Part shown: in pieces, positions 7,396 to 64,000 of the stretch
How the letters are laid out: each line of letters starts with the position of its first letter
How positions within the stretch are numbered: the stretch's first letter is position 1
Source: a virus
Taxonomy: Duplodnaviria > Heunggongvirae > Uroviricota > Caudoviricetes
Strand: one strand, 5' to 3'
Length of the DNA: 64,000 nt
IMG/VR virus record: IMGVR_UViG_3300028800_000057
Made by a program: the position numbers and the translations under genes
The notes under the pieces: generated by a model
Databases searched by the model: none
The model's input: only the letters and a program-made list of their open reading frames with translations
What the model was told of the DNA's origin: nothing

Positions 7396-7397
7396 AG

Positions 7398-14753: not shown

Positions 14754-14999
14754 ATGGCAATCTCAGTTATCGATGGTCCTCTAGTTCAGGCTGAAGGACC
14801 CCATGACCACGAGGGTCTCGGTCGCGAGAGGTTTTGGGACATGACTCCCAAGCAACGTCGAGACAACCTAAGCCGGATCACAGAGCAAGCCAATGCTGGT
14901 GCCCTCCAAGCTCCGGATAAAGAGTTCGCTCGGGGTTGGCTGAGTGAGCTTGAACGCTACCGTCGTCACCATGGCGACCCGCTAGGAGATCCCCAGTGA
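14754..14999 (+). CDS. hypothetical protein
   Basis: ORF after motif copy 7. Confidence 0.5.
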   Translation: MAISVIDGPLVQAEGPHDHEGLGRERFWDMTPKQRRDNLSRITEQANAGALQAPDKEFARGWLSELERYRRHHGDPLGDPQ

Positions 15000-24794: not shown

Positions 24795-25294
24795 CTGAGT
24801 TTGTTGATCCACTTAAGATGGTTCGTAGCGTGTACAGTCACGTTGACTCTGAGAATCACGAGATCAACCTTGCTGATGACTCAAAGCGTCGGTGGTTCGG
24901 TTTCTCGTGCGTCGGCTGCAATGATGAGTACGTTACCTGGCAATGCTCGGGCAAGGCGTTGGGGTGCCTCATGGTCTATGAACATCCCGGTGAAGACCAG
25001 CTGCTGCTCAAGTTGGTGAGTACTCAAGCTGGTAGAATCTCTATTCGAGATGCGCTCAATCGACTTGTACAATTTAGGGTGACAGCAAAGATCTTCTCTC
25101 AGATGAAGTCTAACGCTGTACATGCTTCAAACCCACTTGATGACCCTAGTACTGAAGTTGAGATCCTCGAAGACATGCTTATGGACGATGCTGCTAGACT
25201 AACCACTTCAAGTGATAAGACCCTAATCAATTCATTGAAGACTAGCTTTCGCAATAACATCCCGAGTCGTTACAACCGGAGACCTGTGATATGA
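24791..25294 (+). CDS. hypothetical protein with C-terminal SRYNRRPVI tail
   Basis: ORF; tail family. Confidence 0.5.
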   Translation: MTEFVDPLKMVRSVYSHVDSENHEINLADDSKRRWFGFSCVGCNDEYVTWQCSGKALGCLMVYEHPGEDQLLLKLVSTQAGRISIRDALNRLVQFRVTAKIFSQMKSNAVHASNPLDDPSTEVEILEDMLMDDAARLTTSSDKTLINSLKTSFRNNIPSRYNRRPVI

Positions 25295-25905
25295 GCTACC
25301 CGCTCGCTGGGTACTACTGGGTTCAGTACAACAATAAGGAGAAGACAACCTTCATTGCGCGTCTATCCTGGTCAGAGGGTGCTGGTATCTGGTCTGTCTT
25401 TGGGCATGGTGTCGAAGTACCGCTTGACTCATTTACAATCCTTGAGGGGCCCTTACAGTGCTCGGTGACTAAGCCTCCCGCCAAGGAAGACTTACCTACG
25501 CGCCAGGAGAGGGTACTCAAGAGCTTTGAACCCATCGAGCCCTTGGGCCATGAGCGAGAGCCAGACGACCCAGCTACCTTGGAAGAGATTCTGGCCTGCT
25601 TCACAGGACGTGGTGGGACCGTTACGATCAATGCTGTTGACTTCTGTGCAATTCGTGAGGCTCCAGCCGGTAGGTTTCAACCAATTACCACGAGAGATCT
25701 GTTGATGACTGGGTGGGTTGCTACCCTCGATGAAGTACTTTCGATTTATGTATCTCGCAGAATCCCTGTTGGTTATTACTACTGGGGCTACCACCCAGAG
25801 CTCCATGCTAGGTACGTAGATGGTATGGGGATTCAACCACACTTAGACTCCCAAACCATTCGTCAGGTCCAACGAGGCTTGGAGCCCTTCTTGTCTCAAC
25901 CCTAG
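25291..25905 (+). CDS. hypothetical protein, copy 1 of tandem paralog pair (TINAVDF...GYYYWGYHPELHARY)
   Basis: ORF; homologous to downstream copy. Confidence 0.5.
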   Translation: MSYPLAGYYWVQYNNKEKTTFIARLSWSEGAGIWSVFGHGVEVPLDSFTILEGPLQCSVTKPPAKEDLPTRQERVLKSFEPIEPLGHEREPDDPATLEEILACFTGRGGTVTINAVDFCAIREAPAGRFQPITTRDLLMTGWVATLDEVLSIYVSRRIPVGYYYWGYHPELHARYVDGMGIQPHLDSQTIRQVQRGLEPFLSQP

Positions 25906-28765: not shown

Positions 28766-29020
28766 ATGGATTTTGGAGTGGCTTTCGGACTACTACATGA
28801 AGGCAAAGCAATAAAACGAAGTACCTGGGATTGTTGGATCGAGATACGAGATCTACCAGCTCACCGAGAGTCACTACCAGCGGACAGCTTTGAGATTGGT
28901 ACCTTCTTAGTACTAATCCAACCGACTGGTAACTACACACGTTGGACACCATTCGACCAAGACTTGCTAGCTAGGGATTGGGAGGAGACGCCAACTCTAG
29001 CTAAAGACCTCGTGGTGTAA
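28766..29020 (+). CDS. hypothetical protein
   Basis: ORF. Confidence 0.4.
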   Translation: MDFGVAFGLLHEGKAIKRSTWDCWIEIRDLPAHRESLPADSFEIGTFLVLIQPTGNYTRWTPFDQDLLARDWEETPTLAKDLVV

Positions 29021-38543: not shown

Positions 38544-40481
38544 CTAGGTTGTAGCTGGCTTGTCAGTCTTCTTACCTATCATCTTGCCAACTGAGGATGC
38601 GATCTCGTTGACTGCGCCCATGGTCTTCTGAACAGTCTCGACCGTGGAGGCGTCTGCGCCGGCCAAGAACCCACCGAAGGCCTGGGAGAGGCCCATGCCC
38701 GCGTTGAAGTGCTGGGACATCTTGGCGACGTCCTCAGGGGTACCGTAGACGTTGGCTTGGATCTTTCCGTAGAACTGGGCAGTCGCTTTGGCCGACTCGA
38801 TTCTGACCAGGGCTTCTTGGGTGATTTGGAGTTTGGCCAACTCGAAGTTCTGAGCCGCCTCACCGTTGGCTGCACGAGCTTCTAGTTCAGGCTTGAGGAC
38901 CTCTTCAACTCGTTGCTTGTCGATCTGGACCTCGCGAGCCTTGACCTCGACAGGGACCATGGCCAGAGCTTTCTGACCCTCAGCAGCAGCTAGCAGCTTG
39001 GCTTTCTCACCGTCAGCTTGGGCAATGAGGGTTGCCTTGTTACCAGCGGCTTGAAGTTCTGCTGCTTTCGAATCTGCTGTTGCCTTCTTGGTTGTAGCTT
39101 CAGCATCCGCATCAGCCGATGCTTTGCGCGCCTCAGCCTCTTTCATGGTCCGATAGGCGCCGGCATCAGCGGTCCTCTGGGCGGTTACATAGTTCTTCTC
39201 AGCTTCACCTTGAGCCGCAATAACTGCCTTCTGCTTCTCTCGGTCTGCTGCAGCAACTACCTCTACCGTTTGGATATTCTGACGAGCCTTCTGTCGGTCA
39301 GCTTCAGCATCCGCTAAGAGGGCTTCCGCCTTGGCTTTCTCGGCTTCAGATCCAGCAATGGCTTTCTGTTGGTCCCGCTTGGCGACTTCCACCTTCTGTT
39401 CAGCAACCACGATGGCTTGCTGTTGCTGACGCTTGGCAACCTCGACGGCCTGTTCTTGAGAAACCTTGGCAAGGATTGTCTGTTGTGCGTTCTCGGTTGC
39501 AGCCACATCGATTTTCCGTTGAGCTTCGATCTGGCTTTGCTTACCAATGCGTTCCTGCTCAGCTTGAATTGAGAGTACTTGAGCCGACTGATTCGCTTCA
39601 GCCTCAGCTTGCTTCCTCTCCAGCTCTAGGATCTGAGTTCGTGTCTGAACGTCCTGATCCTTTCGAGCTTGCTCACCGGTGCGGACGATGGTGTTCCTCT
39701 CGGTGAGGTTCTTCTGAGTGATTTCCGCAATGGTTCTCAGCCCTTGGGCGTCGAAGATGTTATCATTTTTCAGGTTGGTAATATCGGTCTGATCCAACTT
39801 GGAGATGGTGACTGTTTCAAGGAGGAACCCGTTGTGCTTCAAGTCCGCAGTGACCCCCTCCACAACTTCCTTCAAGAACTCATCTCGGTCGCTGTTTAGT
39901 TGTTCTAGGGTCTTCTTGGCAGCACTCGTGCGCAGAGCTGATACCAGCTTGTCTTCAATGAGGGCCGCTACACTCGACTCATAGGACCGTCCGTCAGACT
40001 TTCTTTGTTGTTGAGAATTCACATTGACTTCGCTCATCTTGTCACCAAGGGAACGGGCTGCTGCTTTGATATCCTCATCCGAGGCTTGTACCCGAACGTA
40101 GAACTCAGCTTGGACGTCGGCGCGCAACTTATCACTGGTGATGAGAGCATCGGCCCCAATACGTTGTACTGGCAACTTGATGGTCTCAAGGGACACTCGA
40201 ACTATCTGGTGGATGACAGGGAGGATAACCTGACCACCATCTCGAATGACCTTCAACCCGCCCATGCCAGTCTTGACAAAGGCCTCACTTGCCTTTGTTT
40301 TGACATACAACTTGGTGATTACGAGAAGTGTTACGCAGATCAGAACCAGCGTGATTCCGCTGATAGTCATGATGACGGAGGACACCCCCGGTACATGGTG
40401 CGTTGTGAATGTGTTTACTGCTATTGGACTGGCAATTAGAGCTATCCCAAAGAGCAACAGAAAAAATAGACCTATACCCAT
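38544..40481 (-). CDS. flotillin-like SPFH/band-7 protein (YqiK-like) with N-terminal TM and long Ala/Glu/Lys/Gln coiled-coil
   Basis: TM helices, SPFH-like VIRDGGQVILPVIHQIVRVSLETI, extended EA-repeat coiled coil. Confidence 0.7.
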   Translation of the reverse strand: MGIGLFFLLLFGIALIASPIAVNTFTTHHVPGVSSVIMTISGITLVLICVTLLVITKLYVKTKASEAFVKTGMGGLKVIRDGGQVILPVIHQIVRVSLETIKLPVQRIGADALITSDKLRADVQAEFYVRVQASDEDIKAAARSLGDKMSEVNVNSQQQRKSDGRSYESSVAALIEDKLVSALRTSAAKKTLEQLNSDRDEFLKEVVEGVTADLKHNGFLLETVTISKLDQTDITNLKNDNIFDAQGLRTIAEITQKNLTERNTIVRTGEQARKDQDVQTRTQILELERKQAEAEANQSAQVLSIQAEQERIGKQSQIEAQRKIDVAATENAQQTILAKVSQEQAVEVAKRQQQQAIVVAEQKVEVAKRDQQKAIAGSEAEKAKAEALLADAEADRQKARQNIQTVEVVAAADREKQKAVIAAQGEAEKNYVTAQRTADAGAYRTMKEAEARKASADADAEATTKKATADSKAAELQAAGNKATLIAQADGEKAKLLAAAEGQKALAMVPVEVKAREVQIDKQRVEEVLKPELEARAANGEAAQNFELAKLQITQEALVRIESAKATAQFYGKIQANVYGTPEDVAKMSQHFNAGMGLSQAFGGFLAGADASTVETVQKTMGAVNEIASSVGKMIGKKTDKPATT

Positions 40482-46159: not shown

Positions 46160-46591
46160 CTATTTTTTCTCTGGGTGGCATAAGTTACGAATGACTCTCT
46201 CGTGTCGGGTGGGGACGCACTCGCGAGGGGACCCAGTCTTACTCTTCAGGTGTGGCATCTCTCGGAGCAGCTGGTCAAGTACTTCTTGGTGGCCTGCCTC
46301 GGCCTTCTCCCATGTCGAATAACGCCACTGGGCCTGATCCATAGTTCCTCCGAATACCATGGTCTCAAATAGGAGTGGCTCGGCTCCGTCCATCCAGCGG
46401 TGATTGATGCCCATGAGGAAAGTAGTTGATACAAGGATCTCCTCGGTCCCAGAAAGATACTCATCCTTTCGTACTCTTCGAACTCCATGATCAGGATCTT
46501 GTACAATCCACTCAAGGCATTCGATAGAGCTGACGGGGACCGCCGTCTTTCCCTCGAGTTTGAAGAAACGACACATCGAGGGAAGATACAC
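46160..46591 (-). CDS. hypothetical protein with C-terminal TRHERVIRNL tail
   Basis: ORF; tail family. Confidence 0.45.
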   Translation of the reverse strand: MYLPSMCRFFKLEGKTAVPVSSIECLEWIVQDPDHGVRRVRKDEYLSGTEEILVSTTFLMGINHRWMDGAEPLLFETMVFGGTMDQAQWRYSTWEKAEAGHQEVLDQLLREMPHLKSKTGSPRECVPTRHERVIRNLCHPEKK

Positions 46592-46721
46592 CGTTGACAG
46601 AACTAGGACAACTGATTATCCTGGGTGGCATGTCGAAGTATACGTAGATTTCTTCAGCTCGCGGCCCGCCGCCTCATGTTCGTTTTTCAAATAACTTTGA
46701 AACGACTAGGAGGTTAGTGCG

Positions 46722-47189
46722 ATGCATACCGTGATAAAGAAACTACGAACAGATTTAGTCAAGAGTATCCAAGACACTTTGGAGATCAGTAGAAAGATCC
46801 AAAGCCTCAAGTGGAAAGATGGATCGTTACCCGAGGTGCAGCGTCTTCGCTCCGCCAAGAACGAGCAGGGGCAGAGGGTCAACGGAAGTCGATCCCTAAA
46901 GCCTTACCTTCGCCCCGAGACCGGCGATGAGCGAAACCGTCTCTGGACGAAGAAAAGGAGCCTTGGCTTCACGACTCGTGATTACTTGCTCCTTTGGGCT
47001 ATGCTTCGAGGGCGCGCGTACAAGAGTGTTGAAGCTAAATGCAAAGAGGATAACTATCCGAGTACCTACGGGATGGCCTGTATCCTCGAAGGGTACTTTT
47101 CGGACACCAGGTGTCCGATTGGAGCTGACGAGATCAACGAGTGGGTCAAGGGTGGTGCTGCTCCCCAACTCATTGAGGTGGCTGCCTAG
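46722..47189 (+). CDS. hypothetical protein
   Basis: ORF. Confidence 0.4.
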   Translation: MHTVIKKLRTDLVKSIQDTLEISRKIQSLKWKDGSLPEVQRLRSAKNEQGQRVNGSRSLKPYLRPETGDERNRLWTKKRSLGFTTRDYLLLWAMLRGRAYKSVEAKCKEDNYPSTYGMACILEGYFSDTRCPIGADEINEWVKGGAAPQLIEVAA

Positions 47190-47659
47190 TGTCCAGCATC
47201 CAAGTAGAGCTAGACAAGCTCAACAAGGAAGCCGTCGAGAAGACGGCTGAGGCAGAGAGGCTAGTACGGCTATCTGCTATGTTTCCAGATCTACAAAAGC
47301 ATGTGGGTCGATGGAACAAGGTGGCCTACTACTCAGTATCAGTGAACTCGAAAGTTGAAAGGTTTGACCTTCGACATAACTGCGGGTGTTGCTCTGACAG
47401 TCCTTTGGAGGTTTGGCCTTACTTGGAAACTCCGGAGGGTAATGTATACTCTGACCCACCGAGCTTTCAAGTTGGGGAAAAGCATTACCTAGGGGGTGAC
47501 AGGCCCTACCCTAAGTGGAGGGAGAAGCTCCAAGCGGCTGGGATCCCTGAGGTGGTTATCGGGGCAATCTCGATGCACTTCCAAGTGGACAAAGATGCTC
47601 GGGTTCAGGCTGCCTACGAGGATGATGAGGTTCCTGAAGACCCTGATCCACTCGTCTGA
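47189..47659 (+). CDS. hypothetical protein
   Basis: ORF. Confidence 0.4.
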   Translation: MSSIQVELDKLNKEAVEKTAEAERLVRLSAMFPDLQKHVGRWNKVAYYSVSVNSKVERFDLRHNCGCCSDSPLEVWPYLETPEGNVYSDPPSFQVGEKHYLGGDRPYPKWREKLQAAGIPEVVIGAISMHFQVDKDARVQAAYEDDEVPEDPDPLV

Positions 47660-47815
47660 TCTTCGTGCTTGGCTGTGATCTCAGGCTTACCCAAGCACGA
47701 ATCACACACGTGTACTCCGGTTCGACTCGCTTCAATCACGCTCGGATGAAGTGGGTCGAACCAGGAGGCCCAATGACACTTCGAGCATTCAAGTTCAACG
47801 GTCCCTCTCGGACGG

Positions 47816-48160
47816 ATGTTGTCTTCCATGGAAACTACTACCCCGCAGAAACTTTACCTTGTAACTCGTGAGGATCTATCACCTGCTCAACAAGCTGTCC
47901 AGGCTGCACATGCCCTGACTGAGTACCTAATGCAGCATAAAGAAGGTGCTTTGAGTTGGCACTCAAGCTCAAATACCCTGGCTTTACTGTCAGTTCCGAC
48001 TGAGGAGAGTTTGAGCGCCTTGGCCCACAAAGCTAGACGTAAAGGGTTTATGATCTCGGAGTTTAGAGAGCCAGACAGACTTGACGAATTGACTGCGGTG
48101 GCCTTCGAACCGAAAGCCAAACCACTTTTGCGTAACATTCAATTGGCTCTTAGGCTATAG
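47816..48160 (+). CDS. PTH2-like (peptidyl-tRNA hydrolase type 2 fold) protein
   Basis: KLYLVTREDLSPAQQAVQAAHA resembles Pth2 K.v.VVR.DL.M.KGK.AAQ..HA. Confidence 0.4.
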   Translation: MLSSMETTTPQKLYLVTREDLSPAQQAVQAAHALTEYLMQHKEGALSWHSSSNTLALLSVPTEESLSALAHKARRKGFMISEFREPDRLDELTAVAFEPKAKPLLRNIQLALRL

Positions 48161-48358
48161 TTGAGTATGACGGTGACCAATTGCAAACAGAGTCTCTACT
48201 TCCCTGTGGATATGTACCACGAGGTTCGTGAGGAGGCTGTACGCCTTGATCGATCCGTCTCGTGGGTTGTCGTTCAAGCCTGGAGGATAGCGAGATCAAA
48301 GATCAAGAATCTTCCCGGTGTAACTGATCCACCTGATAGTGATACCAAGCTTCCGTAG
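48161..48358 (+). CDS. hypothetical small protein; its stop codon lies inside the tRNA 5' arm
   Basis: ORF. Confidence 0.3.
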   Translation: MSMTVTNCKQSLYFPVDMYHEVREEAVRLDRSVSWVVVQAWRIARSKIKNLPGVTDPPDSDTKLP

Positions 48359-48420
48359 CTCAGCGGTAGAGCAGTGAATTCTAACCTCATTGGTCGTGGG
48401 TTCGAACCCCTCCGGAAGCG
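48349..48420 (+). tRNA. tRNA-like cloverleaf with anticodon CUA (amber-suppressor type); 7-bp acceptor, D-arm GCTC/GAGC, T-loop TTCGAAC; one mismatch each in anticodon and T stems
   Basis: manual fold: loop TT-CTA-AC with U33 and A37. Confidence 0.55.
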
Positions 48421-48421
48421 C

Positions 48422-49342
48422 TCAGAGTTTCCACATGACCGTTGTATTTGGGCCTACCCCAATATGGTTATCTAAGTTGTGCAGGTGATCCATTCTCTCC
48501 AGTGAGAGCTTGAACTTCTTAGGGATAGCTTCGAACCCATAGTAGGAGCCGGCCATTGCTCCGGCGATAGCAGCTGTCGTGTCTGTGTCCCCACCCGCTC
48601 TGATGGCGGCCATGACAGCATCCTCGTATGAATCAGTGAGCATGAAGGCGGCTGCCGCTGAGGGTACCGTTTGGGTTACATGAGACTTGGTTCCAAAGAC
48701 ACTGAATGCCTCCGGTAGGGAAAGTCGGTCTTTGGTCTTTCCGAGTATGATGAGCTTGTCTTTGATCTTGGAGTTGCTCAGAAAATCCAAGGTAGCTTCA
48801 ATAAGATCAAACTTTGGTACCCCCTGCCAGATGAAAGCAACCATCAAGGCAACTGCTGCTGAACCCTCTCGAGCTTCCACTGACTTATGGGTGATCCTAG
48901 ACTCCATCCTTGCAAACTCGGATACCGTCAGCGGATCATCATGGTAAAATGCTCCCATGGGGGCCGCCCGCATTGCGGTACCATTGCCTTCGGCGCCATC
49001 AATCCCACTATCTGTCCAGCGAAAACCCTCCTTCAAGCGTTGAAGTGAGGCTTTGGTGGTCTTACCCATCCCCCGAGTATCCCCGGCGATGTACCAGTGG
49101 AGATACCGGTTGGCGACATCGCGCGGGTAAAAACCCCCACAGATGTACAGGGATTCTGTAAGCATCTTCGCCATCATAGTATCATCAGTCCATTGGCCAG
49201 GGGTGAGCTGATGATACTCACTTGGCAAGTAGTCTCCCCTCCAACTTAGGAGCATAGGATCGCTCGCAAGCCGTGTTTCGAAGGGCATTCCAAGAGCATC
49301 TGCCACAGCCTCACCTACTAGAGGTGCCGGATCACTAACCAT
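48422..49342 (-). CDS. ADP-ribosylglycohydrolase (ARH/DraG family)
   Basis: VADALGMPFE ... QWTDDTMM ... GGDTDTTAAIAGA. Confidence 0.8.
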   Translation of the reverse strand: MVSDPAPLVGEAVADALGMPFETRLASDPMLLSWRGDYLPSEYHQLTPGQWTDDTMMAKMLTESLYICGGFYPRDVANRYLHWYIAGDTRGMGKTTKASLQRLKEGFRWTDSGIDGAEGNGTAMRAAPMGAFYHDDPLTVSEFARMESRITHKSVEAREGSAAVALMVAFIWQGVPKFDLIEATLDFLSNSKIKDKLIILGKTKDRLSLPEAFSVFGTKSHVTQTVPSAAAAFMLTDSYEDAVMAAIRAGGDTDTTAAIAGAMAGSYYGFEAIPKKFKLSLERMDHLHNLDNHIGVGPNTTVMWKL

Positions 49343-49348
49343 GTATTG

Positions 49349-49425
49349 TCACTACACCAAGGGGACATGAAGTCCCCTCAGAGACTTCATGTCGATTTCA
49401 CTTGAAGATTAAAACTAGCTGGTGT
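49349..49425. ncRNA. candidate structured RNA between divergent ARH and Ro60 genes: 11-bp hairpin GACATGAAGTC/GACTTCATGTC enclosed by outer pairing CTACACCA/TGGTGTAG
   Basis: direct inspection of nested complementarity; function inferred from Ro60 adjacency. Confidence 0.3.
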
Positions 49426-49480
49426 AGATAGGTGAGTTCCTCATATCGAGGGGCAACTTGTCCAGTCCGTTAGGACTGGA

Positions 49481-51118
49481 ATGCTAGAAATGGAGGCCAC
49501 CGTGGCCAAGAATAATATCGTCGGTTTGAACCCGAATGCGAGCAATTATGCTGGTGGGGATGCGTATGCTATGGCGCCGGAGAATGCCCTGGCACAACTA
49601 GCTGTAACTGGTTGTTTTAACAGTACCTTCTATACAACTGCTGAGTCACAGGCAGAGCAGGTTCTCGACCTAGTCGGGAAGTCTGATCCTGAGTTCGTGG
49701 CTAAGCTAGCGGTTTATGCCCATACGACTGGGTACATGAAGGACATGCCGGCGGCCCTCCTGGCCAACTTAGCTGTTCGTAACCCTGAGCTCTGCGTGAA
49801 GGTCTTCCCGCGCGTAGTCAGCAACGGTAAGATGTTGCGCAACTTTGCTCAGATCATTCGGTCTGGGAAGTTTGGTAAGAGGAACGCTTCCTCGCACCGG
49901 CTGCGAAAGGTCATTGCCCAGTGGTTCGACTCTAGGACTGACGACCAAATATTCTTCAACTCGGTCGGTAACAACCCGACCTTGGGTGACGTGGTGAAGG
50001 TGGCTCGGGTGCGCCCGACGTCTAGGACCAGGTCTGCTCTCTATGCTCACCTGGCGGGCAAGGATAAGGGTTTCTTCGACGGTGAGGACTTCGTTACGGC
50101 TGAGTCTCTCCCGGCGCTAGTAGCGGCTTATGAAGCCTTCCGGGTGTCCCCGGTGGGTGAGGTTCCTAATGCACCCTTCGAGATGCTATTGGGACTTAAG
50201 TTGAGTCTTGATGATTGGAAGGCGGTAGCCGCCAAGGCAACTTGGCCTCAGACCTTCAAGAATCTCAATACGTTCGCTCGTCACGGAGTTCTTGCGGACC
50301 CTGAGATGGTCAACTTGATTGCAGCCAAACTACATAACAAGGATCTGATCGAAAAGGCTCACGTCTTTCCATACCAGATCATGATGACCTACAAGGCGGT
50401 TACGGATCGGAGCATCACCTTCCGTGGTTCAAAGCCCAATGATGACGACTTTGAACAGATGCCGAACAAGATCATTGTAGCTCTTGAGGAAGCTCTTGAA
50501 CTAGCTACAATGAACGTTCCTGCCTTCGATGGGCAGAACGTAGTCATCTGTGTCGACGTGTCTGGGTCGATGTCCACAAGCCCTGTAACTGGTTCTCGAA
50601 AGGGTTCCACTACAAAGGTCATGAGCATCGATGTGGGTTCGTTGATTGGTTCGTCCATCCTCAGAAGGAACCCGCGGGCTAGACTCATCGCCTTCGAGGG
50701 TCGAGTAGTCCCGGTCAAGGTGCATGCTGGCAACAGTGTCATGCAGAATACCAAGATCTTAGCCTCCGTTGGTGGTGGTTCAACTGATTGTGCTAAACCT
50801 TTGGCTTTGCTCAATGCAGAGGCCGCCAAGGTTGACGTGGTCATCTTCGTCTCGGATTACGAGTCTTGGACTGGTAATCATGGGATCACAGGGGCGACTC
50901 AAATGCAAGGGCAATGGGACTTACTGAAGTGTAGGAACCCCAATGCCAAGTTGGTCTGCTTGGATCTCGCACCTCACAACACGAATCAGGTTGTAAGCCG
51001 ATCTGATACTTTTGGTATCGGTGGGTTCTCTGATCAGGTTTTCAGCATGATCAGTGATTTTGTCACTGGTTCCGGCAAGAACCAGTGGGTAGACATCATC
51101 AATCAAGTTGAACTCTGA
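49481..51118 (+). CDS. Ro60/Rsr-like TROVE-domain protein with C-terminal vWA (MIDAS DVSGSM)
   Basis: NYAGGDAYAM..LAQLAVTGCFNSTFYT ... KVFPRVVSNGKMLRNF TROVE-like; VVICVDVSGSMS vWA. Confidence 0.7.
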   Translation: MLEMEATVAKNNIVGLNPNASNYAGGDAYAMAPENALAQLAVTGCFNSTFYTTAESQAEQVLDLVGKSDPEFVAKLAVYAHTTGYMKDMPAALLANLAVRNPELCVKVFPRVVSNGKMLRNFAQIIRSGKFGKRNASSHRLRKVIAQWFDSRTDDQIFFNSVGNNPTLGDVVKVARVRPTSRTRSALYAHLAGKDKGFFDGEDFVTAESLPALVAAYEAFRVSPVGEVPNAPFEMLLGLKLSLDDWKAVAAKATWPQTFKNLNTFARHGVLADPEMVNLIAAKLHNKDLIEKAHVFPYQIMMTYKAVTDRSITFRGSKPNDDDFEQMPNKIIVALEEALELATMNVPAFDGQNVVICVDVSGSMSTSPVTGSRKGSTTKVMSIDVGSLIGSSILRRNPRARLIAFEGRVVPVKVHAGNSVMQNTKILASVGGGSTDCAKPLALLNAEAAKVDVVIFVSDYESWTGNHGITGATQMQGQWDLLKCRNPNAKLVCLDLAPHNTNQVVSRSDTFGIGGFSDQVFSMISDFVTGSGKNQWVDIINQVEL

Positions 51119-51140
51119 GTAACCAAGTATAGTTAGTTGA

Positions 51141-51707
51141 TTGCAAAGGGCACTGCGGATTTACTTCTGCGGTGTCCTTTGTGTAATGTCCTTCACCCCA
51201 GAGACCTTGATCGGCAGTTTGATTACTGCCGTCTTATCCGGTGGCGGTACCGCGTTCACTACTGTCTTCGCTCTTTTCAAGGACATTCGAAAGAAGGTCG
51301 AGGAACTTGAGAAGAAGGTTGGTTCTTTTGAATCTAAAACCGGACTTGCTTACGCAATAGTCAGGCTAGAGGAGACCATCAAGGATGTCAAACGAGACAC
51401 TGAGGAGACAACCGACGCTCGTAGGCGTCGCCCGTCCTTCCTCAGCTTTGATGATATGCTTGAGGCTGATACGACAGCCCTACCTTCCCTAATCCATCGT
51501 ATTAAGAACTTTGAAGTCAAGGTGAGGGAGATTGAAGAGAGCCTTCAACGACTTGACATGAGGGTCAAGCGCATGGTTATGGAGGAGGAATTCGAAGCTG
51601 CTGATCGTAAGCGTGCCGAGGAAATAGCGGGAGTTAGAACTACTGTGTTTGAGGTCAAAGGGCTCCTCCAAGGCTTGCACATGGCATTAGGCCTCACTAA
51701 GAGATAA
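51141..51707 (+). CDS. membrane-anchored coiled-coil protein
   Basis: N-terminal TM, helical remainder. Confidence 0.45.
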   Translation: MQRALRIYFCGVLCVMSFTPETLIGSLITAVLSGGGTAFTTVFALFKDIRKKVEELEKKVGSFESKTGLAYAIVRLEETIKDVKRDTEETTDARRRRPSFLSFDDMLEADTTALPSLIHRIKNFEVKVREIEESLQRLDMRVKRMVMEEEFEAADRKRAEEIAGVRTTVFEVKGLLQGLHMALGLTKR

Positions 51708-51709
51708 CC

Positions 51710-51955
51710 ATGGATCGGCCCCACCCAAAGATCTTCAGGCACCAGTCTGGGCTCATGCAATCAGTCAAGGCTGAGTTGGATGGGGTTCTTGAGGCTACGA
51801 TAGCCGTGGTGGAAAAGGTTAAGAGTGACCCACCTCCAAAGGAGTCACTGCATCCCGTTGATCCTGGTCTCTACAAGTTGACTTCAGCGGATAGTGGAGA
51901 GCACCCAGGATTGATTGAGACAGTTGTAATCCCGAACAAGAGGAAGAAGACCTAA
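51710..51955 (+). CDS. hypothetical small protein
   Basis: ORF. Confidence 0.35.
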   Translation: MDRPHPKIFRHQSGLMQSVKAELDGVLEATIAVVEKVKSDPPPKESLHPVDPGLYKLTSADSGEHPGLIETVVIPNKRKKT

Positions 51956-51958
51956 GTA

Positions 51959-53797
51959 CTATCGAAGTGGGCCATCCCCTGCAAGACCGCTCGGGATACC
52001 TGCCACACTAATGGTAGCATCCACTGTCCCTGAGGAGATCAGGATGCGCGAGATATTGTTGCTACCCTTGTTGTTCACATACATGTGGTCCGCACCGTCC
52101 CAGGCAACCTCGTCTGGAGTTGTCCCGACACTGATAGTTGAGTCAACTGTCCCTGAAGAGATCTCTATGAGTGATACAGTTCCGTCACCGGAATTAGTGA
52201 CATACATGTGGTCCGCCCCATCCCACGCTATTTTATTCGGGCTACTCCCTACGAAGATCATAGCATCGACATTGTTACTCGTCAGACTGATTCGGATTAC
52301 TTGATTGGATAACGAGCTAACCACATACATGTGGTCCGCACCGTCCCAAGCAACTCCCTTAAAGTCGTTTAATAGAGGGATAGTCAGGTTGACTGTTGCG
52401 GTTGTAGTGTCCACGCTAGACACTGTTCCATCGCTACTATTGACCGCAAACATGTGGGACACACCGTCCCAAGCGATAGCACGAGGGGAGTTCCCAAGTG
52501 TAATTGCGGATCCAAGTAGAGCGCCTGTTGCGATCTGGATCCTATGAGCAGTGTTCCCACCACGACCAACAACATACATGTATGAGCCACCATCCCATTC
52601 AATTCCGAATGGGTTAGTTTCAGCACTGCTTATGGTAGTAGTACTCAGATCTGCTATTGCTATCCTGGTAACTGTGTTGTCGTTCTGACTAGCGACATAC
52701 ATGTAGAGTCCACCGTCCCATGCAATATCAACCGGTTCACTACCAACACTAATGAGATCACTTACTACTCCAGAAGAGATTAGAATCCTCCTAGCTACGT
52801 TTGTACTATCCATGGATACGTACATGTAGAGGCCGCCATCCCAAGCAACCCCAGTTGGAAATCCTGACCCCAGGGAGATGGTCGCATCGACAGCTCCGCT
52901 CGAGATCAGGATTCTAGATACAGTGTTGGTGCCATTGTTAGTGACATACATGTGGGCCCCTCCGTCCCACGCAACCCTATATGGATTAGAACCAACAGGG
53001 ATGATCAGATCAACAACTCCTGTTGAGATCAGGATCCTGTAGACTGAACCATCCTGGTCCACTGTGTACATGTGGGCCCCACCATCCCACGCGATATCAA
53101 TTGGAGATATCCCAACAGGGATGACTAAGTCAATAACTCCAGTAGAAGCAATGATTCTAGAGACCGTCCCTTGCCCAAAGTTTGCTGTGTAGATGTGACC
53201 AGACCCGTCTCGTGCAACGCCCCATGAATTAGGGGCATTCATCAGATGTACTGACGAATAACTAGGCCAAGTATCTACTGATACTTCCAGAATCTTGTTC
53301 GTGTTTGGGTTAGTATTGTTGGCAGTTACCCACATATTGAAGCTGCCATCCCAAGCCACCTTGTTGGGAACACCGTCACTACTACTGAAGTTGATGTTAG
53401 AGTCTACAACCCCCGAGACAATTGCAATTCGAGTAATCGTGTTTTCATTGTCAACCACGTACACGAAGCTAGTATCCCTAGCTAGCGCAATCGGTTGAGA
53501 TCCAATGTTAGTAGTACTATCTAGTGCAAGACTGGATATCCTAACTCTTTGAACTGAATCCCCATCAACCTCAGCCAAGTACATATAGGATCCACCATCC
53601 CATACTATCGCTTGGGGGTTGTCACCAGCGGTAACGGTGCTGTCAATAGCCCCGGTAGCTATGTTGACGCGCGGTACTAGATTTGCTGAGCCAAGAGGGA
53701 CCCACATGTGCCCCCCAATAAGTGGGCGCTTGCCTAAGGCCCACTCGGGGGCTCGTGCAATGGTTCTCATTAGAGTGCCCTCACGTACTCGAACCAA
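51959..53797 (-). CDS. YVTN/NHL-type beta-propeller repeat protein (about 14 x AWDG..HMYV repeats), likely receptor-binding/tail-associated
   Basis: regular about 40-aa repeats. Confidence 0.6.
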   Translation of the reverse strand: MVRVREGTLMRTIARAPEWALGKRPLIGGHMWVPLGSANLVPRVNIATGAIDSTVTAGDNPQAIVWDGGSYMYLAEVDGDSVQRVRISSLALDSTTNIGSQPIALARDTSFVYVVDNENTITRIAIVSGVVDSNINFSSSDGVPNKVAWDGSFNMWVTANNTNPNTNKILEVSVDTWPSYSSVHLMNAPNSWGVARDGSGHIYTANFGQGTVSRIIASTGVIDLVIPVGISPIDIAWDGGAHMYTVDQDGSVYRILISTGVVDLIIPVGSNPYRVAWDGGAHMYVTNNGTNTVSRILISSGAVDATISLGSGFPTGVAWDGGLYMYVSMDSTNVARRILISSGVVSDLISVGSEPVDIAWDGGLYMYVASQNDNTVTRIAIADLSTTTISSAETNPFGIEWDGGSYMYVVGRGGNTAHRIQIATGALLGSAITLGNSPRAIAWDGVSHMFAVNSSDGTVSSVDTTTATVNLTIPLLNDFKGVAWDGADHMYVVSSLSNQVIRISLTSNNVDAMIFVGSSPNKIAWDGADHMYVTNSGDGTVSLIEISSGTVDSTISVGTTPDEVAWDGADHMYVNNKGSNNISRILISSGTVDATISVAGIPSGLAGDGPLR

Positions 53798-55176
53798 GCT
53801 CGAACCCTAAAGCTGTAGTGATTACCGGATGCTTGCTGACCCACCTGGAGTTGCACCGAGTTCCCATTAATCACCTGTCTGAAGTAGGTGGCTGAGGTAA
53901 GAGATCGACTATCATCAGACAGAGATAGGGTTCCTCCGGCGCGGTGATAGGTGACCACCCCACGCTCCCTCTGGAGGTTATCCCCAGTACCTGTATTAGT
54001 AGCAATGTTGTCAGTTACTACAAGCAAGTCGTATCCATCTGCTGGTGGACCTACAATAGTGTCGATAATATGCCAGGTTACCCCGCCGCCAGTACCATTA
54101 TAGGTGGTGAGTGGTGGCGCGATATCAGGACCAAGTTCACACTTCCAAACCTGGTTATGGAAAGAAGCTACGGGTGCTGGATCCGCTACAGCTGTCTGCC
54201 TAAACGTTTTTCCAGCATAAACGCTACCTTCTCTAACATAAACCTGAAACCCTGTAGTCATCCAGGGAATAAATGGGTAAGGTACTAAACTACCACCAAT
54301 ATACCAGTAAATAGTGTTTGACCCTAACGACCCTCTAGATAGTAACACTAGATCAGCGTTACTAAGAGTTACCCCATCAAAGTGTGATGGATTACCTGGA
54401 TCAGGGGAGGCAACTAAGGAGACTGCTTTGACCGTCATCCTATCGGTCATTATCCCAAGTGGGTTACCTGAACCAAGTGAAGCGTCAAAGAAAAGCCCAA
54501 AGTTTTGGTATGGAAAGATCTCACTGGGTTGTAGTTCATCAGTCCCCGTGTTACCAACTGCAGACCAAGTCCCTGCCGGGCTTATAGGTAGGTTGAGCTC
54601 ACTTGAAGTCAGGGTTGGGGTGTTGAAGGTAGTAGTACCAGTAATATTGAGCTTTGTGAAATTTCCAATCGAACCCCCATCAATAAACGCCTCTACACTC
54701 GAGCCGCCACCACCCCCGCCACGCTTGATGAATTGATTGAGGGTCCTAGCCCAACCAAAGACCGGATCATTCTCGAAGCGTTCTCCTAGGGCGCCTACAC
54801 GAAATGAGCTAGCTGTCAGGGTATAGATCCCAAACGTCGTCGTGTATGCCGGACCCCCGTTGTTGGCTATGGACTGGAAGATGTAGGCTCGACCAGCTAC
54901 CCCTGCAGGAACCGTGAAGGTTACCGTGCTACCGGGGGTCGAGACGATACCTGTTATGGGGTCTACGTTAGCGAGGACTGGGACAACAGTATCCTCATCA
55001 GTACCTACTACCCTGAGAGTCCACTGCCCAACGCTATCAGCACTTACTAGCGTGATGGATATCGTGTTGCCTGGAGTGACGTTTACTCCAGCTGGGTAGT
55101 TCGGATCTCCTGTGTGATCAGGGTTGATTAGCGGACCAGTGCCATCTTGAACTAGAACGTGCGGAGACGCAGCCAT
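53770..55176 (-). CDS. hypothetical large structural (fibre/baseplate-like) protein
   Basis: ORF, Gly/Thr-rich. Confidence 0.45.
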   Translation of the reverse strand: MAASPHVLVQDGTGPLINPDHTGDPNYPAGVNVTPGNTISITLVSADSVGQWTLRVVGTDEDTVVPVLANVDPITGIVSTPGSTVTFTVPAGVAGRAYIFQSIANNGGPAYTTTFGIYTLTASSFRVGALGERFENDPVFGWARTLNQFIKRGGGGGGSSVEAFIDGGSIGNFTKLNITGTTTFNTPTLTSSELNLPISPAGTWSAVGNTGTDELQPSEIFPYQNFGLFFDASLGSGNPLGIMTDRMTVKAVSLVASPDPGNPSHFDGVTLSNADLVLLSRGSLGSNTIYWYIGGSLVPYPFIPWMTTGFQVYVREGSVYAGKTFRQTAVADPAPVASFHNQVWKCELGPDIAPPLTTYNGTGGGVTWHIIDTIVGPPADGYDLLVVTDNIATNTGTGDNLQRERGVVTYHRAGGTLSLSDDSRSLTSATYFRQVINGNSVQLQVGQQASGNHYSFRVRAWFEYVRAL

Positions 55177-55483
55177 ACCATGACTGCCGTATGAGTGCTC
55201 TATCAGCGCCCATACCTCAGGACTCCCAATAAAGTTTTGACGTACTAGCTATGGTAGTAACCAATGAAGCTCAGTGCGTACTTCAACCTTGGAGATGTTA
55301 TTCTCTATGGCCGATGGAAAAACCACCGTGGTCGCGTTGTCTCATTCGGGCAAGACAAGCACGGAAACCCAACCATTGAGATTGAACCGATCCCCAAGGG
55401 ACGGAAGCAAAACAAGGTGATGGGGCTCTACAAGATCTGGCATGAGCACAAGGACCCTGTGGTAGCTGCAGAGCACCAACTAG

Positions 55484-56134
55484 TTAGAAATGTTTGCGCC
55501 CGTTTTTCTGGTGATGATGAGGTTTAGCCTCTCGCTTGTGTTGTCTAGACTTGGCCAGAATGTTCTTCCGAACCGTCATCATGTCGAGGGTTGATATCGC
55601 CCCCTGAATGGTCTTACCGTCCAAGTGATCCATCTCGTGTTGAATCGCTTTGGCAAAGAAGTCCTCAGCCTCGATTTCAGTGGGGAATCCCTCACCATCT
55701 AAGTACTTCACCTTGATGGTCTCGTAGCGAGGCATCTTTGCGCTACCACCGGGGAAGGACAGACAGCCCTCCCGGCTCATGACCGGTTCTTTTCCTTCGG
55801 GTAGGACCAACTCTGGGTTGATGAAGATATGAGGGTCAGAACGTTCCAAGTCCTCTGGCCACCGGACGTCGACCACGAACATTCGGATGCTCTTCCCAAC
55901 CTGGGGGGCCGCTAGACCTACCCCACCCTCTAACATCATGGTCAAGAGCATGTCTCGCGCCAGCTGCTTGATCTCCTCAGTGACCTCTTCTACGGGAACA
56001 CAGACCTGATTGAGGATATCGCTAGGGTAGTAGACCATCTTCAGCGGGCTAATTCCGGTGATCTCCTCAGATCCTTTAGCAGATTCCTGTTCTAGAGCAT
56101 TTGAGTAGGCAATGGCTATGTGATCTCGTATCAT
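55484..56134 (-). CDS. def: peptide deformylase
   Basis: GVGLAAPQVG, EGCLSFPG, QHEMDHLDG. Confidence 0.85.
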   Translation of the reverse strand: MIRDHIAIAYSNALEQESAKGSEEITGISPLKMVYYPSDILNQVCVPVEEVTEEIKQLARDMLLTMMLEGGVGLAAPQVGKSIRMFVVDVRWPEDLERSDPHIFINPELVLPEGKEPVMSREGCLSFPGGSAKMPRYETIKVKYLDGEGFPTEIEAEDFFAKAIQHEMDHLDGKTIQGAISTLDMMTVRKNILAKSRQHKREAKPHHHQKNGRKHF

Positions 56135-58758: not shown

Positions 58759-59889
58759 TTGACCTTAAAAAGGGAAACTGTGGCTAATTTAGTAGGAAAT
58801 TTACCTGATGATTTCATACCCTCAAACTTTACTGTGTTATATGACACCTACTCACCATTTGTTACGAGGTTAGTCACACGGTACAATCGTGTTCAAGCTA
58901 ATTTCGAGGACCTTCTCCAGCACGTATGGATGAAGTTGGTCGAAGTTGACGTCATTCAGAAGTACAATGACTCAAGCTCCCTCCCTAAGAAGATGACCGC
59001 GCTCGAAGCGTGTGCTTATCTAGATATAGAGTGGGGATCACTGAAGCGCGCCGTTCACCGTCACCTTATTGGTGAGGATCGCCATCTCGACCGCATTCGA
59101 AGTGTGTCAAAAGACACTAAGGGCAAACTCCTTCGACGGGATCACGGCACCTGCCACTGTTGCGGTAGGAACATGGTTGAGTTTGGCAAGGCTTTCAACC
59201 GGTACAAGAGTGATCCGTTGAGGACTAACTGGTTCAAGAGAATGCTGGCATCGCTTGGCCTGACCTCGAAGCAGAAGACCTTCTGGTACGCCGTGAAGGA
59301 CCCTAGCGTTGCCTTCCGAAGGGGTATGGATGAAGCCGACCGGTACAAGACCACTTGCTTCATCTGCTTGCGCCAGATCAGTCCTCCAGTGGTACGTTCC
59401 AAGTCTGAGTGGGCCCCAGTACCCATTGAGGGTACGTGGGCTTCAAAGAAGGCGCTTTACTCTCGAGAGGATATTGAACGGTTCCGGTTGGAGCGGGAAG
59501 CTAGAGGCAAGCGTAATAACAAGGCCATCTGTCCTAGGAAGATCAAGTCAAAACCGTTCTTCAAACTGTATCTTGCTCGCGCGGTTCACAACATCTACGC
59601 CAACTGGTGTCGGACTCGGTCTCGACGGTACAAGGAGCACTTCCCAGGGACAGACCCTGAGACGGGTCGGTCATGGGAAGACACCCTCGTGTCAAACACC
59701 TCGACTCAAGACACACTGTCCGAGTTGCATGAGGCTGTAAAGATCCTTGTGGATAACAACTCGGATGTGATGACGAAAACCCACGAAGACGTCATCATCT
59801 TGCTAGCGAAGGGGTGCTCCCCTGAAGAGATTGTTGTGCGTCTTGGGCTGCCCAAACGTGGACTCAAGACCCTCTCACTCGGGACTTGA
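58759..59889 (+). CDS. sigma-factor-like protein (region 2- and region 4-like segments with inserted Cys-rich segment)
   Basis: FEDLLQHVWMKLVE (region 2-like); DVIILLAKGCSPEEIVVRLGL (region 4 HTH-like). Confidence 0.5.
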   Translation: MTLKRETVANLVGNLPDDFIPSNFTVLYDTYSPFVTRLVTRYNRVQANFEDLLQHVWMKLVEVDVIQKYNDSSSLPKKMTALEACAYLDIEWGSLKRAVHRHLIGEDRHLDRIRSVSKDTKGKLLRRDHGTCHCCGRNMVEFGKAFNRYKSDPLRTNWFKRMLASLGLTSKQKTFWYAVKDPSVAFRRGMDEADRYKTTCFICLRQISPPVVRSKSEWAPVPIEGTWASKKALYSREDIERFRLEREARGKRNNKAICPRKIKSKPFFKLYLARAVHNIYANWCRTRSRRYKEHFPGTDPETGRSWEDTLVSNTSTQDTLSELHEAVKILVDNNSDVMTKTHEDVIILLAKGCSPEEIVVRLGLPKRGLKTLSLGT

Positions 59890-60680
59890 GAATCCTCTTG
59901 TTCAGGGGGTCTGATGTGACAGCTCGAACTCGTCTCATCAAAGCCTCCCTAGAACTCAAGCGCCTAGTATTCAGCTCGTTGCCTTGGGGCCTTCGAGTTG
60001 CGCACTTGCTCCACCAGATCCGGTTCGCGTCCGACGCCTCCGTCTTTGGTCAATCCATCTACGGGTTATTTCTCCTCTACGGAGTTGAGGGGATGCCCAC
60101 CCCACCTATGGTACCTAAAAGTATCAAGGATATCAACAGATTGCACGGGTATGGTCGAGATTTCGGCCAAAAGGCGTTAGGCCTTGCCCTTCGATTGTTC
60201 AAATCCGACTCGATGAAGGTCGAGCGGTCTCAAGAGACTCTATCTCTTGTATTCATGAAGCTTTTCTCTGACTCAACCCTAGAGAGTAAATTCAAGGGGA
60301 AGCCACTCGCCTACGCTGAGAATTATGCATACTTAGCTGTAAGGAGTGAGGCAGTCAGTTTGATGCGTAAAGAAAGGCTACGCGCCCACAGTGACATTGA
60401 AGATCTCGTCACCGAGCCAGCTTCATGGGATAGCCTAGGCGACATGATCCCGAGGGCTGAGCAAGAAGCTCTACTGAAGGAGCTAGAGCGCGCTGTCAAC
60501 CCGGAGACGTTCCCTGATATCGTGGAGTACTTCCAGCTCCTGCTAGAAGGTCACAATACAGAGGAGATTGCGCGGGAGAGGTTACTTCCTAGCCTACAAG
60601 ACAAGGCAATGACCCAGCAAGGGTTGAGGCGGTATGAAGGGGTGATCAAGAGGGTTCTTGAGCGCCACTTTGGTGTATAG
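59886..60680 (+). CDS. second sigma-factor-like protein
   Basis: ETLSLVFMKLF...ENYAYLAVRSEAVSLMRKER; FPDIVEYFQLLLEGHNTEEIARE. Confidence 0.45.
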   Translation: MRILLFRGSDVTARTRLIKASLELKRLVFSSLPWGLRVAHLLHQIRFASDASVFGQSIYGLFLLYGVEGMPTPPMVPKSIKDINRLHGYGRDFGQKALGLALRLFKSDSMKVERSQETLSLVFMKLFSDSTLESKFKGKPLAYAENYAYLAVRSEAVSLMRKERLRAHSDIEDLVTEPASWDSLGDMIPRAEQEALLKELERAVNPETFPDIVEYFQLLLEGHNTEEIARERLLPSLQDKAMTQQGLRRYEGVIKRVLERHFGV

Positions 60681-63470: not shown

Positions 63471-64000
63471 ACAGGCGAAAAAAGACCTTGACGGTCTACC
63501 GCCCCCTGAGCTAGGCTACAGTCTCAAGGCTCAAGAAGCCAATCAATCGGAGTAACGTGTCCTCTCTACTCAAAACCGCAACATTAGAATCCAGGCCGGC
63601 GAGAATATCGCTGTCGGGTTCGTTGTGCGTCCATAGTCTAGGGCATTTTACAAGCGATATGGCCCAACTTAAGTCTTGGTATCCCACCTCAGCACGTATT
63701 GCCAATCCAGAGGTGGGTACATAGGGCGGCTAGTCTGAATAACGGAGTACCCGTAAACAGAAGGCCGCCCTGGGAAACCACGGTGGCCTTAGTCGTTTTA
63801 GGGCCATTCCCCCGATAAAACCAACACACAGGGAACTGTGTGAAAACTAGAGCTTCGTCTGTCACACACAGTGGCATCAGGATAGGTTTGTCAGTTCGTT
63901 AGGAAAGCAAAGGACAATGGGAATTACAGATCGCTATCGACTCGTAACCGCAGCTAGACCCCACACTATGGTGGTTGATTAGCAATCAGGCGAGTTGCGG

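Follow-up and report, generated by a model that had tools for sequence, protein, structure and literature searches.

The viral DNA record IMGVR_UViG_3300028800_000057 (IMG/VR; Caudoviricetes) raises the question of what a tRNA that reads the amber codon UAG is doing in a phage whose own genes end in TAG. The record was analysed as a single stretch of 64,000 nt, referred to here as the window, in which a tRNA with the anticodon CUA lies a short distance downstream of a gene for a PTH2-type peptidyl-tRNA hydrolase homologue (PTH2). A preliminary description of the window, made from the letters alone, had proposed this tRNA as a phage-encoded amber suppressor candidate that might cause programmed read-through of selected genes. 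Here we report that PTH2 and stop-reading tRNAs are neighbours in very distant phage lineages, and that in some of these the PTH2 gene itself is interrupted by an in-frame TAG. The window tRNA is probably a functional phage amber suppressor, forming the downstream half of a conserved PTH2-suppressor cassette.

Results

An amber-reading tRNA of ordinary structure

A single tRNA was detected in the window by ARAGORN (48349-48421 on the + strand, anticodon cta), and the Rfam tRNA model RF00005 matched 48349-48420 on the same strand over its full length (model positions 1-71 of 71), with a score of 60.6 bits against a gathering score of 29 and an E-value of 1.2e-10. The two programs thus agree on the CUA tRNA with U33 and A37 that had been folded by hand in the preliminary description, and the covariance model upholds the anticodon with a score well over its cut-off. 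In the Rfam alignment the 7-nt anticodon loop reads UUCUAAC, with U33, C34-U35-A36 and A37, and only two pairs depart from the standard ones, A31·C39 at the foot of the anticodon stem and U50·U64 within the T stem, the same two mismatches that had been named previously. The acceptor stem is GCUUCCG/CGGAAGC with the discriminator G73, the D arm (GCUC-AGCGGUA-GAGC) keeps the GG of its loop, the anticodon arm (GUGAA-UUCUAAC-CUCAU) has a 5-bp stem, and the T arm (GUGGG-UUCGAAC-CCCUC) follows a variable loop of 5 nt. The identical tRNA sequence is present in five metagenome contigs, each from a different sample.

ARAGORN labels the element tRNA-Pyl. This label reflects the anticodon only, since nothing is unusual in its D, T and variable loops or in the lengths of its stems. 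tRNA-Pyl has a compact D loop without GG, a 3-nt variable loop, a 6-bp anticodon stem and an atypical T loop; the window tRNA shares its CUA anticodon but has no counterpart of these compact features, and its GG-containing D loop, GTTCGAA T loop, 5-nt variable loop and 5-bp anticodon stem rule out this assignment. No pyl genes were found among the Pfam-annotated genes of the window. Similarity to the 18 other tRNAs of the phage gave no clear guide to amino-acid identity, the best sense match (Lys-CUU, 67%) being no better than the match with other CUA tRNAs, and an exact search of IMG/VR with the pattern of the tRNA body and a free anticodon gave no match. The element is a canonical elongator-type tRNA with an amber-reading anticodon.

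Suppressor tRNAs accompany a phage PTH2 subfamily

The gap between the PTH2 stop (48160) and the tRNA start (48349), on the same strand, is ~188-189 nt. The window PTH2 is 114 aa long as the longest open reading frame (ORF) and 110 aa as called in metagenome records, and matches PF01981 with 34 bits (cut-off 23). A profile built from five PTH2 sequences matches the Pth2/Bit1 structures 1q7s (Bit1) and 2zv3, 1rzw and 1wn2 (archaeal Pth2) with E-values of 2e-7 to 1e-6.

A profile scan of IMG/VR returned 15 PTH2 loci with 41-65% identity, from contigs of up to 512 kb and with a locus GC content of 35-64%. In all 15, the PTH2 gene is followed by a tRNA for which ARAGORN calls a stop-codon or a 4-base stop-like anticodon (CUA in nine, UUA in five, and an 8-nt loop containing UCA in one), and in most of them this is the only tRNA in 20 kb. 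The UUA and UCA tRNAs, including class-II tRNAs with long variable arms, are upheld by Rfam at 45-63 bits, within an overall range of 45-66 bits for most of the IMG/VR loci. Scanning of JGI/ENA metagenomes for PTH2 added 80 further loci. A PTH2 pattern scan of one genome per species for 185,579 bacterial and archaeal species gave two matches, both of them metagenome-assembled contigs with CUA tRNAs, and by this pattern-based scan the subfamily appears to be phage-specific.

After removal of near-duplicates the combined set comprises 92 loci, of which 43 have at least 1.5 kb of downstream and at least 1 kb of upstream sequence. A canonical suppressor lies within 2.5 kb of PTH2 in 34 of these 43 well-flanked loci (26 CUA, 8 UUA), and two more have CUA- or UCA-like tRNAs with odd loops. 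In 69 loci the fetched stretch contains at least one tRNA, and in 56 of these the tRNA closest to PTH2 is a canonical suppressor. A binomial test with a generous null of 10% gives p ~1e-43, which is not a true probability because the loci share ancestry.

Several tRNAs beside PTH2 hold CUA or UCA in irregular loops (L287, 980-1052; L310 and L311, ~4313-4386 in L310; L253, 10740-10813; L307, 801-874). Their loops are of 8 nt, read by ARAGORN as 'tcta' or 'ttca', with one of 6 nt, and they are candidate expanded-loop suppressors or quadruplet decoders. In L255, a CUA call by ARAGORN (10394-10463) falls below the Rfam threshold. The same locus has a tRNA at 10833-10976 (Rfam, 52 bits), ~0.5 kb after PTH2, with a 72-nt insertion in its anticodon loop.

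The pair is also found in named phages. PTH2 homologues occur in 246 GenBank phage records, 203 of which are mycobacteriophages (~153-160 kb where a size is listed). The mycobacteriophage locus inspected was that of Mycobacterium phage Alice, the other ~200 records being known as PTH2 matches; here an annotated 'tRNA-suppressor (cta)' lies on the same strand 250 nt downstream of gp150, annotated as 'peptidyl-tRNA hydrolase', and the pair sits inside a tRNA array beside a tmRNA. Two uncultured huge phages carry CUA tRNAs downstream of PTH2, LR756500 at ~1 kb and LR756503 (735 kb) with two at +2.3 kb. In Tenacibaculum phage pT24 a CUA tRNA lies 2.5 kb upstream of PTH2, and Lak-B7 has a UUA tRNA 567 nt upstream. 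The complete 485-kb genome LR745208 has PTH2 at 7201-7596, followed after 33 nt by a UUA tRNA, the only suppressor type among 36 tRNAs. The literature on peptidyl-tRNA hydrolase or Pth2, suppressor tRNAs and phages, with incomplete coverage, yielded no description of this linkage or of an in-frame stop, and a PTH2-suppressor cassette in standard-code phages with an in-frame stop in PTH2 is, to our knowledge, new.

In-frame stops within PTH2

In 17 non-redundant loci the PTH2 alignment passes through exactly one stop codon. This is a TAG at one homologous site in at least six lineages (LR756503; L285; L315/L317/L326; L327/L328/L330/L335/L339; L332/L333; L343), in the motif P-TAG-[L/V/I]-x-x-W ahead of an invariant Trp; in LR756503 and L285 it aligns with Glu43 of the window protein. 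In L295 the TAG lies a few residues past the common site. The TAG-interrupted lineages have a CUA tRNA within ~1 kb, often 14-82 nt past the gene, the exceptions being L339, where the contig ends just past the gene, and LR756503, with its tRNAs 2.3 kb away. The GC content of these loci is 39-65%, save for LR756503 (31%), and the genes neighbouring PTH2 in L333 and L328 are long intact ORFs in the standard code, some of them terminated by TAG.

In the best-sampled lineage the TAG column of PTH2 is conserved. Substitutions downstream of the TAG are distributed over codon positions 1/2/3 as, for example, 15/13/30 (chi-square p = 0.011), and this third-position bias indicates that the downstream half is under selection as protein. 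The single conserved TAG, the nearby CUA tRNA and the third-position bias together point to real read-through in these relatives, and the suppressor candidate thus gains a cognate in-frame codon in the adjacent gene of its relatives. As to normal termination, the PTH2 genes of the window, L011 and L021 end in TAG and those of L012 and L013 in TGA.

The anticodon is conserved while the tRNA body changes

The closest gene-order relatives, L011 and L012, have the same arrangement as the window, PTH2, a 63-aa ORF, tRNA(CUA) and a convergent ADP-ribosylglycohydrolase (ARH) gene, with neighbouring proteins 58-75% identical; over the shared gene order the proteins are 61-65% identical and the tRNAs ~66-69% identical, and in L012 the small ORF is separated from PTH2 by a further CUA tRNA. 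In L013 and L021, PTH2 likewise stands beside one or more CUA tRNAs. The CUA tRNAs of relatives that are present in the Rfam table score 52-66 bits. They are ~65-70% identical to the window tRNA, no closer to it than is the phage's own tRNA-Lys. Even the closest PTH2 relative found (L266, 80% amino-acid identity) has a quite different CUA tRNA.

When 16 class-I cassette tRNAs were folded jointly with RNAalifold, the cloverleaf was recovered, 17 of 19 pairs showing compensatory double changes, and the loop was invariant as Y-U-[C/U]-U-A-A. The 31-39 pair is non-standard in five of the 16 and is A·C in three, the window tRNA included (alignment A3, columns 32/40); the weak pair may be a recurrent feature rather than a sign of decay, and the two mismatches of the window tRNA might, as suggested in the preliminary description, modulate its efficiency. 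The cassette tRNAs comprise both class I and class II, have G73, A73 or U73, and by eye show Glu-like or Ser-like features. A stop-reading anticodon is retained while the bodies change, even between close relatives, and the selected trait appears to be stop-codon reading as such and not the insertion of one amino acid. The varied bodies fit poorly with a fixed codon reassignment and better with read-through. Retention of CUA on very different bodies strengthens the case for a suppressor in a genome that terminates with TAG.

The window uses the standard genetic code

Many confident genes of the window had been noted to end in TAG, and this is the case for those at 14996-15601, 17307-18083 and 25291-25905 and for the flotillin-like gene. 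In a greedy set of 91 window ORFs (GC 51%) the terminators are TAG in 24 (26%), TAA in 25 and TGA in 42, and the three longest ORFs all terminate with TAG. ORF coverage is 0.878 with code 11 and becomes 0.906 if TAG, or 0.899 if TGA, is read as sense. A codon-usage model found no coding signal past the TAG stops of the long window ORFs, and long in-frame continuations are equally common after TAG, TGA and TAA. Genome-wide recoding in the window was rejected on these grounds, the gain in coverage not being specific to TAG and coding potential past TAG being absent.

Conserved genes were searched for in-frame TAG by translating ORFs with TAG as X and comparing them with 14 related loci, keeping best-frame alignments (~13,000 aligned residues for the window). 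None was found inside conserved alignments in the window, L011, L012 or L013, and candidates in L018 and L021 were rejected as alignment overhangs beyond the true C-terminus. In the fetched loci of the CUA-bearing relatives L011, L012, L013 and L021, TAG accounts for 17-35% of terminators. Given that TAG ends 24 of 91 ORFs and is absent in frame from conserved genes, the window and its neighbourhood use the standard code and are not TAG-recoded.

The idea of programmed read-through of selected genes fared less well within the window, where no case was found. A fusion of PTH2 through its TAG to the 63-aa ORF, which is RHH-like by eye, was rejected since the two are in frame in the window and not in L011 or L012. 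A fusion of the ORF at 59886-60680 through TAG to a methyltransferase was rejected as well, the upstream ORF having no domain match. Back-up stops are no nearer after TAG (median 42 nt) than after other stops (42-45 nt), the median distance from TAG to the next in-frame stop being 14 codons. T occupies the +4 position after 15 of 24 TAG stops, compared with 19 of 67 TAA and TGA stops (Fisher p = 0.006; p = 0.03 when pooled with relatives). This excess could reflect selection for strong termination beside a suppressor, or composition only.

The complete genome LR745208 also reads in the standard code, with an ORF coverage of 91%, ORFs of up to 3642 aa and 236 TGA, 175 TAG and 106 TAA terminators. 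Taken in 10-kb blocks, it showed no rise in coverage that was peculiar to reading TAG or TAA as sense; a low-coverage block at 30-40 kb was rejected as a case of TAG recoding, as TGA as sense gives an equal rise. Protein, alignment and degenerate-DNA scans of IMG/VR made with the LR745208 portal gene gave LR745208-like contigs among the matches listed, and no in-frame stops were found in the 83 portal genes of this clade among them.

Genomic context

The window belongs to a huge phage and covers an accessory or early-type part of its genome. Its exact-protein matches come from soil or rhizosphere-type metagenome assemblies, and the IMG/VR relatives of the genes near the tRNA lie on viral contigs of up to 529 kb, most of 268-529 kb. 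Overlapping ENA assemblies include ERZ27245401 k141_93733 and ERZ27245406 k141_1896745; two ENA contigs with overlap to the window, of 146.6 and 156.2 kb, reach by their coordinates ~91 kb beyond its left end and ~140 kb beyond its right, and one contig belongs to the 0.2-1 Mb class. A megablast search of 10 kb of the window against GenBank phages gave no match. The window has about 90 genes, mostly small, with family matches to PTH2, ARH, Ro60/TROVE-vWA, peptide deformylase, IF1-like, dCTP deaminase, CoaE, NUDIX, UDG and Tad2-like proteins, two N6/N4 DNA methylases, a sigma-like protein and flotillin (selected features in Table 1). No clear virion genes are among these family matches, and no integrase domain is among the Pfam matches listed for called genes near the tRNA. 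Tad2 is an anti-Thoeris family.

Table 1. Coordinates and assignments of selected features of the window
Feature	Position	Strand	Basis	Remarks
tRNA, anticodon CUA	48349..48420	+	ARAGORN, Rfam RF00005	Amber-suppressor type; class I
PTH2-type peptidyl-tRNA hydrolase homologue	47816..48160	+	Pfam PF01981, profile matches	Ends with TAG
63-aa ORF between PTH2 and tRNA	48167..48358	+	Called in metagenome records	RHH-like by eye
ADP-ribosylglycohydrolase (ARH)	48422..49342	-	Pfam PF03747, 225 bits	
Ro60/TROVE-vWA orthologue	49481-51118	+	PHROG 'RNA-binding protein' 4e-36; Pfam vWA_Ro60	
Band_7/flotillin-like gene	38544-40481	-	Family match	645 aa; tandem TAG-TAG end
IF1-like protein	~12400-12625	+	Pfam eIF-1a	
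Peptide deformylase	55484-56134	-	Family match	
Tad2-like protein	~28770-29020	+	Family match	

The 63-aa ORF overlaps the tRNA by 10 nt, its TAG (48356-48358) being U8-A9-G10 of the tRNA. It has orthologues in the same place in L011 (62% identity) and L012 (49%), and a Pfam search gave no family match; being found in the closest relatives only, it is not part of the cassette core. The ARH gene is convergent with the tRNA, and its stop codon begins one base past the tRNA discriminator. ARH adjoins the tRNA/PTH2 pair in L011 and L012, is ~1.7 kb off in L013 and in L021 is separated from PTH2 by 8.5 kb; that it belongs to the cassette is doubtful. Among GenBank phages the Ro60 orthologue is matched best in Myxococcus phage Mx1 (40.6% identity), followed by hundreds of actinophages.

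Directly to the right of the window, from ~63973-64000 on (L025, 1-10000), is an array of 18 sense tRNAs (Arg, Ser, two Pro, Phe, three Leu, Ile, Glu, Met, Thr, two Asn, Gln, two Lys and Tyr), of which the tRNA-Tyr is cut by the end of the window. Judged by eye from translations, apparent HNH-type endonuclease genes are interspersed in it. The CUA tRNA stands apart from this main array, about 15 kb away.

Discussion

Read as a suppressor, the tRNA would work as follows. PTH2, the 63-aa ORF and the tRNA are probably co-transcribed, and the tRNA would be cut from the transcript's 3' end, given its CCA and charged by a host or phage synthetase, with Gln or Glu as the likeliest candidates. The charged tRNA would then compete with release factor 1 at UAG. 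As TAG is an ordinary terminator in the region, partial read-through is to be expected, which would place short C-terminal extensions on TAG-terminated proteins and allow in-frame TAGs outside the window to be decoded. In many related phages full-length PTH2 would itself need the suppressor to read its in-frame TAG, so that PTH2 output would be tied to suppressor activity. PTH2, in turn, may clear the by-products of suppression, namely peptidyl-tRNAs freed from ribosomes that have run past stops. Suppressor tRNAs in E. coli raise tmRNA tagging, as ribosomes pass stops and reach mRNA ends, and peptidyl-tRNA hydrolase recycles peptidyl-tRNAs that have fallen off ribosomes; together these would explain why the two genes are paired, and the neighbouring tmRNA in Alice is in keeping with this. 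The phage might benefit through the decoding of TAGs that lie in frame elsewhere, through late-gene timing, through disturbance of the host or through protection against attacks on termination. The sequences show the tRNA and its anticodon, its linkage to PTH2, the in-frame stops of relatives and the standard-code setting; that the tRNA is expressed and charged, that read-through takes place, what PTH2 does and how the phage profits are inferences, and amber decoding in vivo is a prediction.

Several findings weigh against the functional suppressor and its cassette. The window tRNA has two non-Watson-Crick pairs and no encoded CCA, and the minimum free energy fold of the lone sequence gives no clean cloverleaf (z = -1.6). 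Neither the 64-kb window nor its 10-kb right flank yielded a read-through target, and the window's own PTH2 is free of an internal stop. In L284, L286 and L288, one TAA interrupts the PTH2 frame at the position of Arg74 in the window protein, with no UUA tRNA within 4 kb; the nearest tRNA there has the loop AUUUUAA, the anticodon UUU and the acceptor stem GCUCUCA. Seven of the 43 well-flanked loci have no suppressor within 2.5 kb, as is also the case within 4 kb for the weaker PTH2 homologues in Xoo-sp13 and Aeromonas phage AsFcp_1. The phage PTH2 proteins have an invariant Glu in place of the Asp of the DAG motif and a loop shorter by four residues, and for this reason their hydrolase activity is an assumption. 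The link between PTH2 and suppressors is, moreover, a genomic association.

An alternative role for the tRNA is that of a code-change tRNA, serving to translate late genes for structure and lysis beyond the window in which TAG would be reassigned (code 15, usually to Gln), a role suggested for recoded phages such as the crAss-like and Lak phages. Suppressor tRNAs accompany phage recoding, in which late genes are recoded and replication genes are standard (bioRxiv 10.1101/2021.08.26.457843), and the genes of the window are all of accessory or early type. The cassette is carried by Lak phages, for which alternative coding has been reported, and in-frame TAG occurs within or just upstream of the first PTH2 codons in LR756500 (locus GC 23%), LR756503 and L255. 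We nevertheless regard this reading as unlikely. TAG is not depleted among the terminators of the window or of L011, L012, L013 and L021, the coverage gain with TAG as sense is no greater than that with TGA, the aligned conserved residues contain no in-frame TAG, and the complete cassette-bearing genome LR745208 is in the standard code throughout. The cassette tRNAs moreover include ochre (UUA) readers and several identity types, and the published route to recoding begins at low GC and with rare TAG. Still less probable is a non-decoding element, whether a pseudo-tRNA, an att-site remnant or a Y-RNA-like partner of the neighbouring Ro60. The mismatched pairs, the missing CCA and the Ro60/TROVE-vWA gene 1 kb away would suit it, and bacterial Y RNAs carry tRNA-like domains. 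Against it stand the tRNA-model match, which is full-length and shows U33 and A37 in a 7-nt loop of standard type, and the persistence of a stop-reading anticodon over dozens of divergent loci with compensatory pair changes. No Y RNA or other RNA family was detected at E <= 5 in 46500-56000, the tRNA is ordinary and unpermuted, Ro60 is missing from most cassette loci, and the Pfam matches listed nearby include no integrase domain. Real decoding is also required by the in-frame TAGs in the PTH2 genes of relatives.

Two further proposals accept decoding and differ in its purpose. The cassette might be a host-directed weapon that forces read-through of host genes ending in UAG, disturbs the host proteome and saturates ribosome rescue, or an anti-defence device that keeps ribosomes moving under toxin attack on stop recognition or A-site mRNA, with PTH2 shielding phage translation from the peptidyl-tRNA load; we give this pair of variants jointly a slim chance. 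Standard-code phages in which the cognate stops are abundant carry the cassette, it seems to matter little which amino acid is inserted, given the varied tRNA bodies, the window neighbours include anti-defence and translation-support genes (Tad2-like, peptide deformylase, IF1-like, ARH and Ro60), a tmRNA is close by in Alice, and a role in host takeover has been proposed for the suppressor of phiKp24. The case is nevertheless purely inferential, and the phage's own TAG-terminated genes would be equally hurt, with back-up stops no closer after TAG. It is about as improbable that tRNA and PTH2 form a release-factor-free termination device, in which the tRNA would take over the finished chain at the stop, the peptidyl-tRNA would leave the ribosome, perhaps helped by the weak 31-39 pair, and PTH2 would free the protein. 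Such a device could let phage translation run to completion where host release factors are in short supply, blocked by the phage or targeted by a defence system, and the in-frame stop of many PTH2 genes would make PTH2 synthesis conditional on an active tRNA half.

The functional suppressor in its cassette can be compared with known systems. Recoded phages (crAss-like, Lak, Agate, Jade) carry suppressor tRNAs; the Jade 'code change module' is made up of a suppressor tRNA along with a tRNA synthetase plus a release factor; and recoding is proposed to set out from a low GC content and scarce TAG or TGA, with one standard-code relative carrying a TGA suppressor as a possible precursor (bioRxiv 10.1101/2021.08.26.457843). 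The window resembles these phages in having a stop-anticodon tRNA in a standard-code part of the genome beside another translation gene, and Lak phages carry the same PTH2-suppressor pair. It differs from them in its GC content of 51%, in using TAG for 26% of terminators with none in frame, and in that relatives of its cassette include ochre readers and the standard-code LR745208; its partner gene, unlike those of the Jade module, is a peptidyl-tRNA hydrolase and not a synthetase or release factor.

Suppressors without an explanation have been described in standard-code jumbo phages, namely Xanthomonas phage XacN1 (two CUA), Agrobacterium phage Atu_ph07 (UCA) and Klebsiella phage phiKp24 (UUA), and in-silico read-through of the 18 amber stops of XacN1 found nothing. 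These too are large phages whose genes still use the cognate stop, and their authors did not identify targets. Their peptidyl-tRNA hydrolases were listed separately and linkage was not reported, and the XacN1 suppressors lie in terminal-repeat tRNA arrays, whereas the window suppressor is apart from the array and tied to PTH2. A broad comparison of jumbo phages noted PTH2 in two groups and proposed ribosome rescue after tRNA cleavage, with no mention of suppressors. A cultured parallel is Alice (Bixzunavirus, cluster C), a standard-code phage with a homologous PTH2 (43% identity) and a CUA tRNA downstream on the same strand, and with a Ro-like protein encoded in related phages of the same size class. 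Its pair lies within a tRNA array by a tmRNA, while the window pair is isolated and flanked by ARH and Ro60.

Taken alone, the window tRNA is a known sort of element, and it is the cassette setting that makes a long-noted puzzle experimentally approachable. The suppressors of standard-code phages acquire a constant partner, PTH2, across very distant lineages, as well as a conserved natural target in the TAG inside the partner gene, and mycobacteriophage Alice, probably with its cluster-C relatives, offers a cultured and genetically tractable carrier. For genetic-code engineering, the cassette tRNAs are also a varied natural source of amber and ochre suppressors. Should the coupling prove functional, phages would possess a dedicated two-part stop-codon module beside whole-genome recoding, and this PTH2-suppressor module could be a standing precursor from which recoding evolves.

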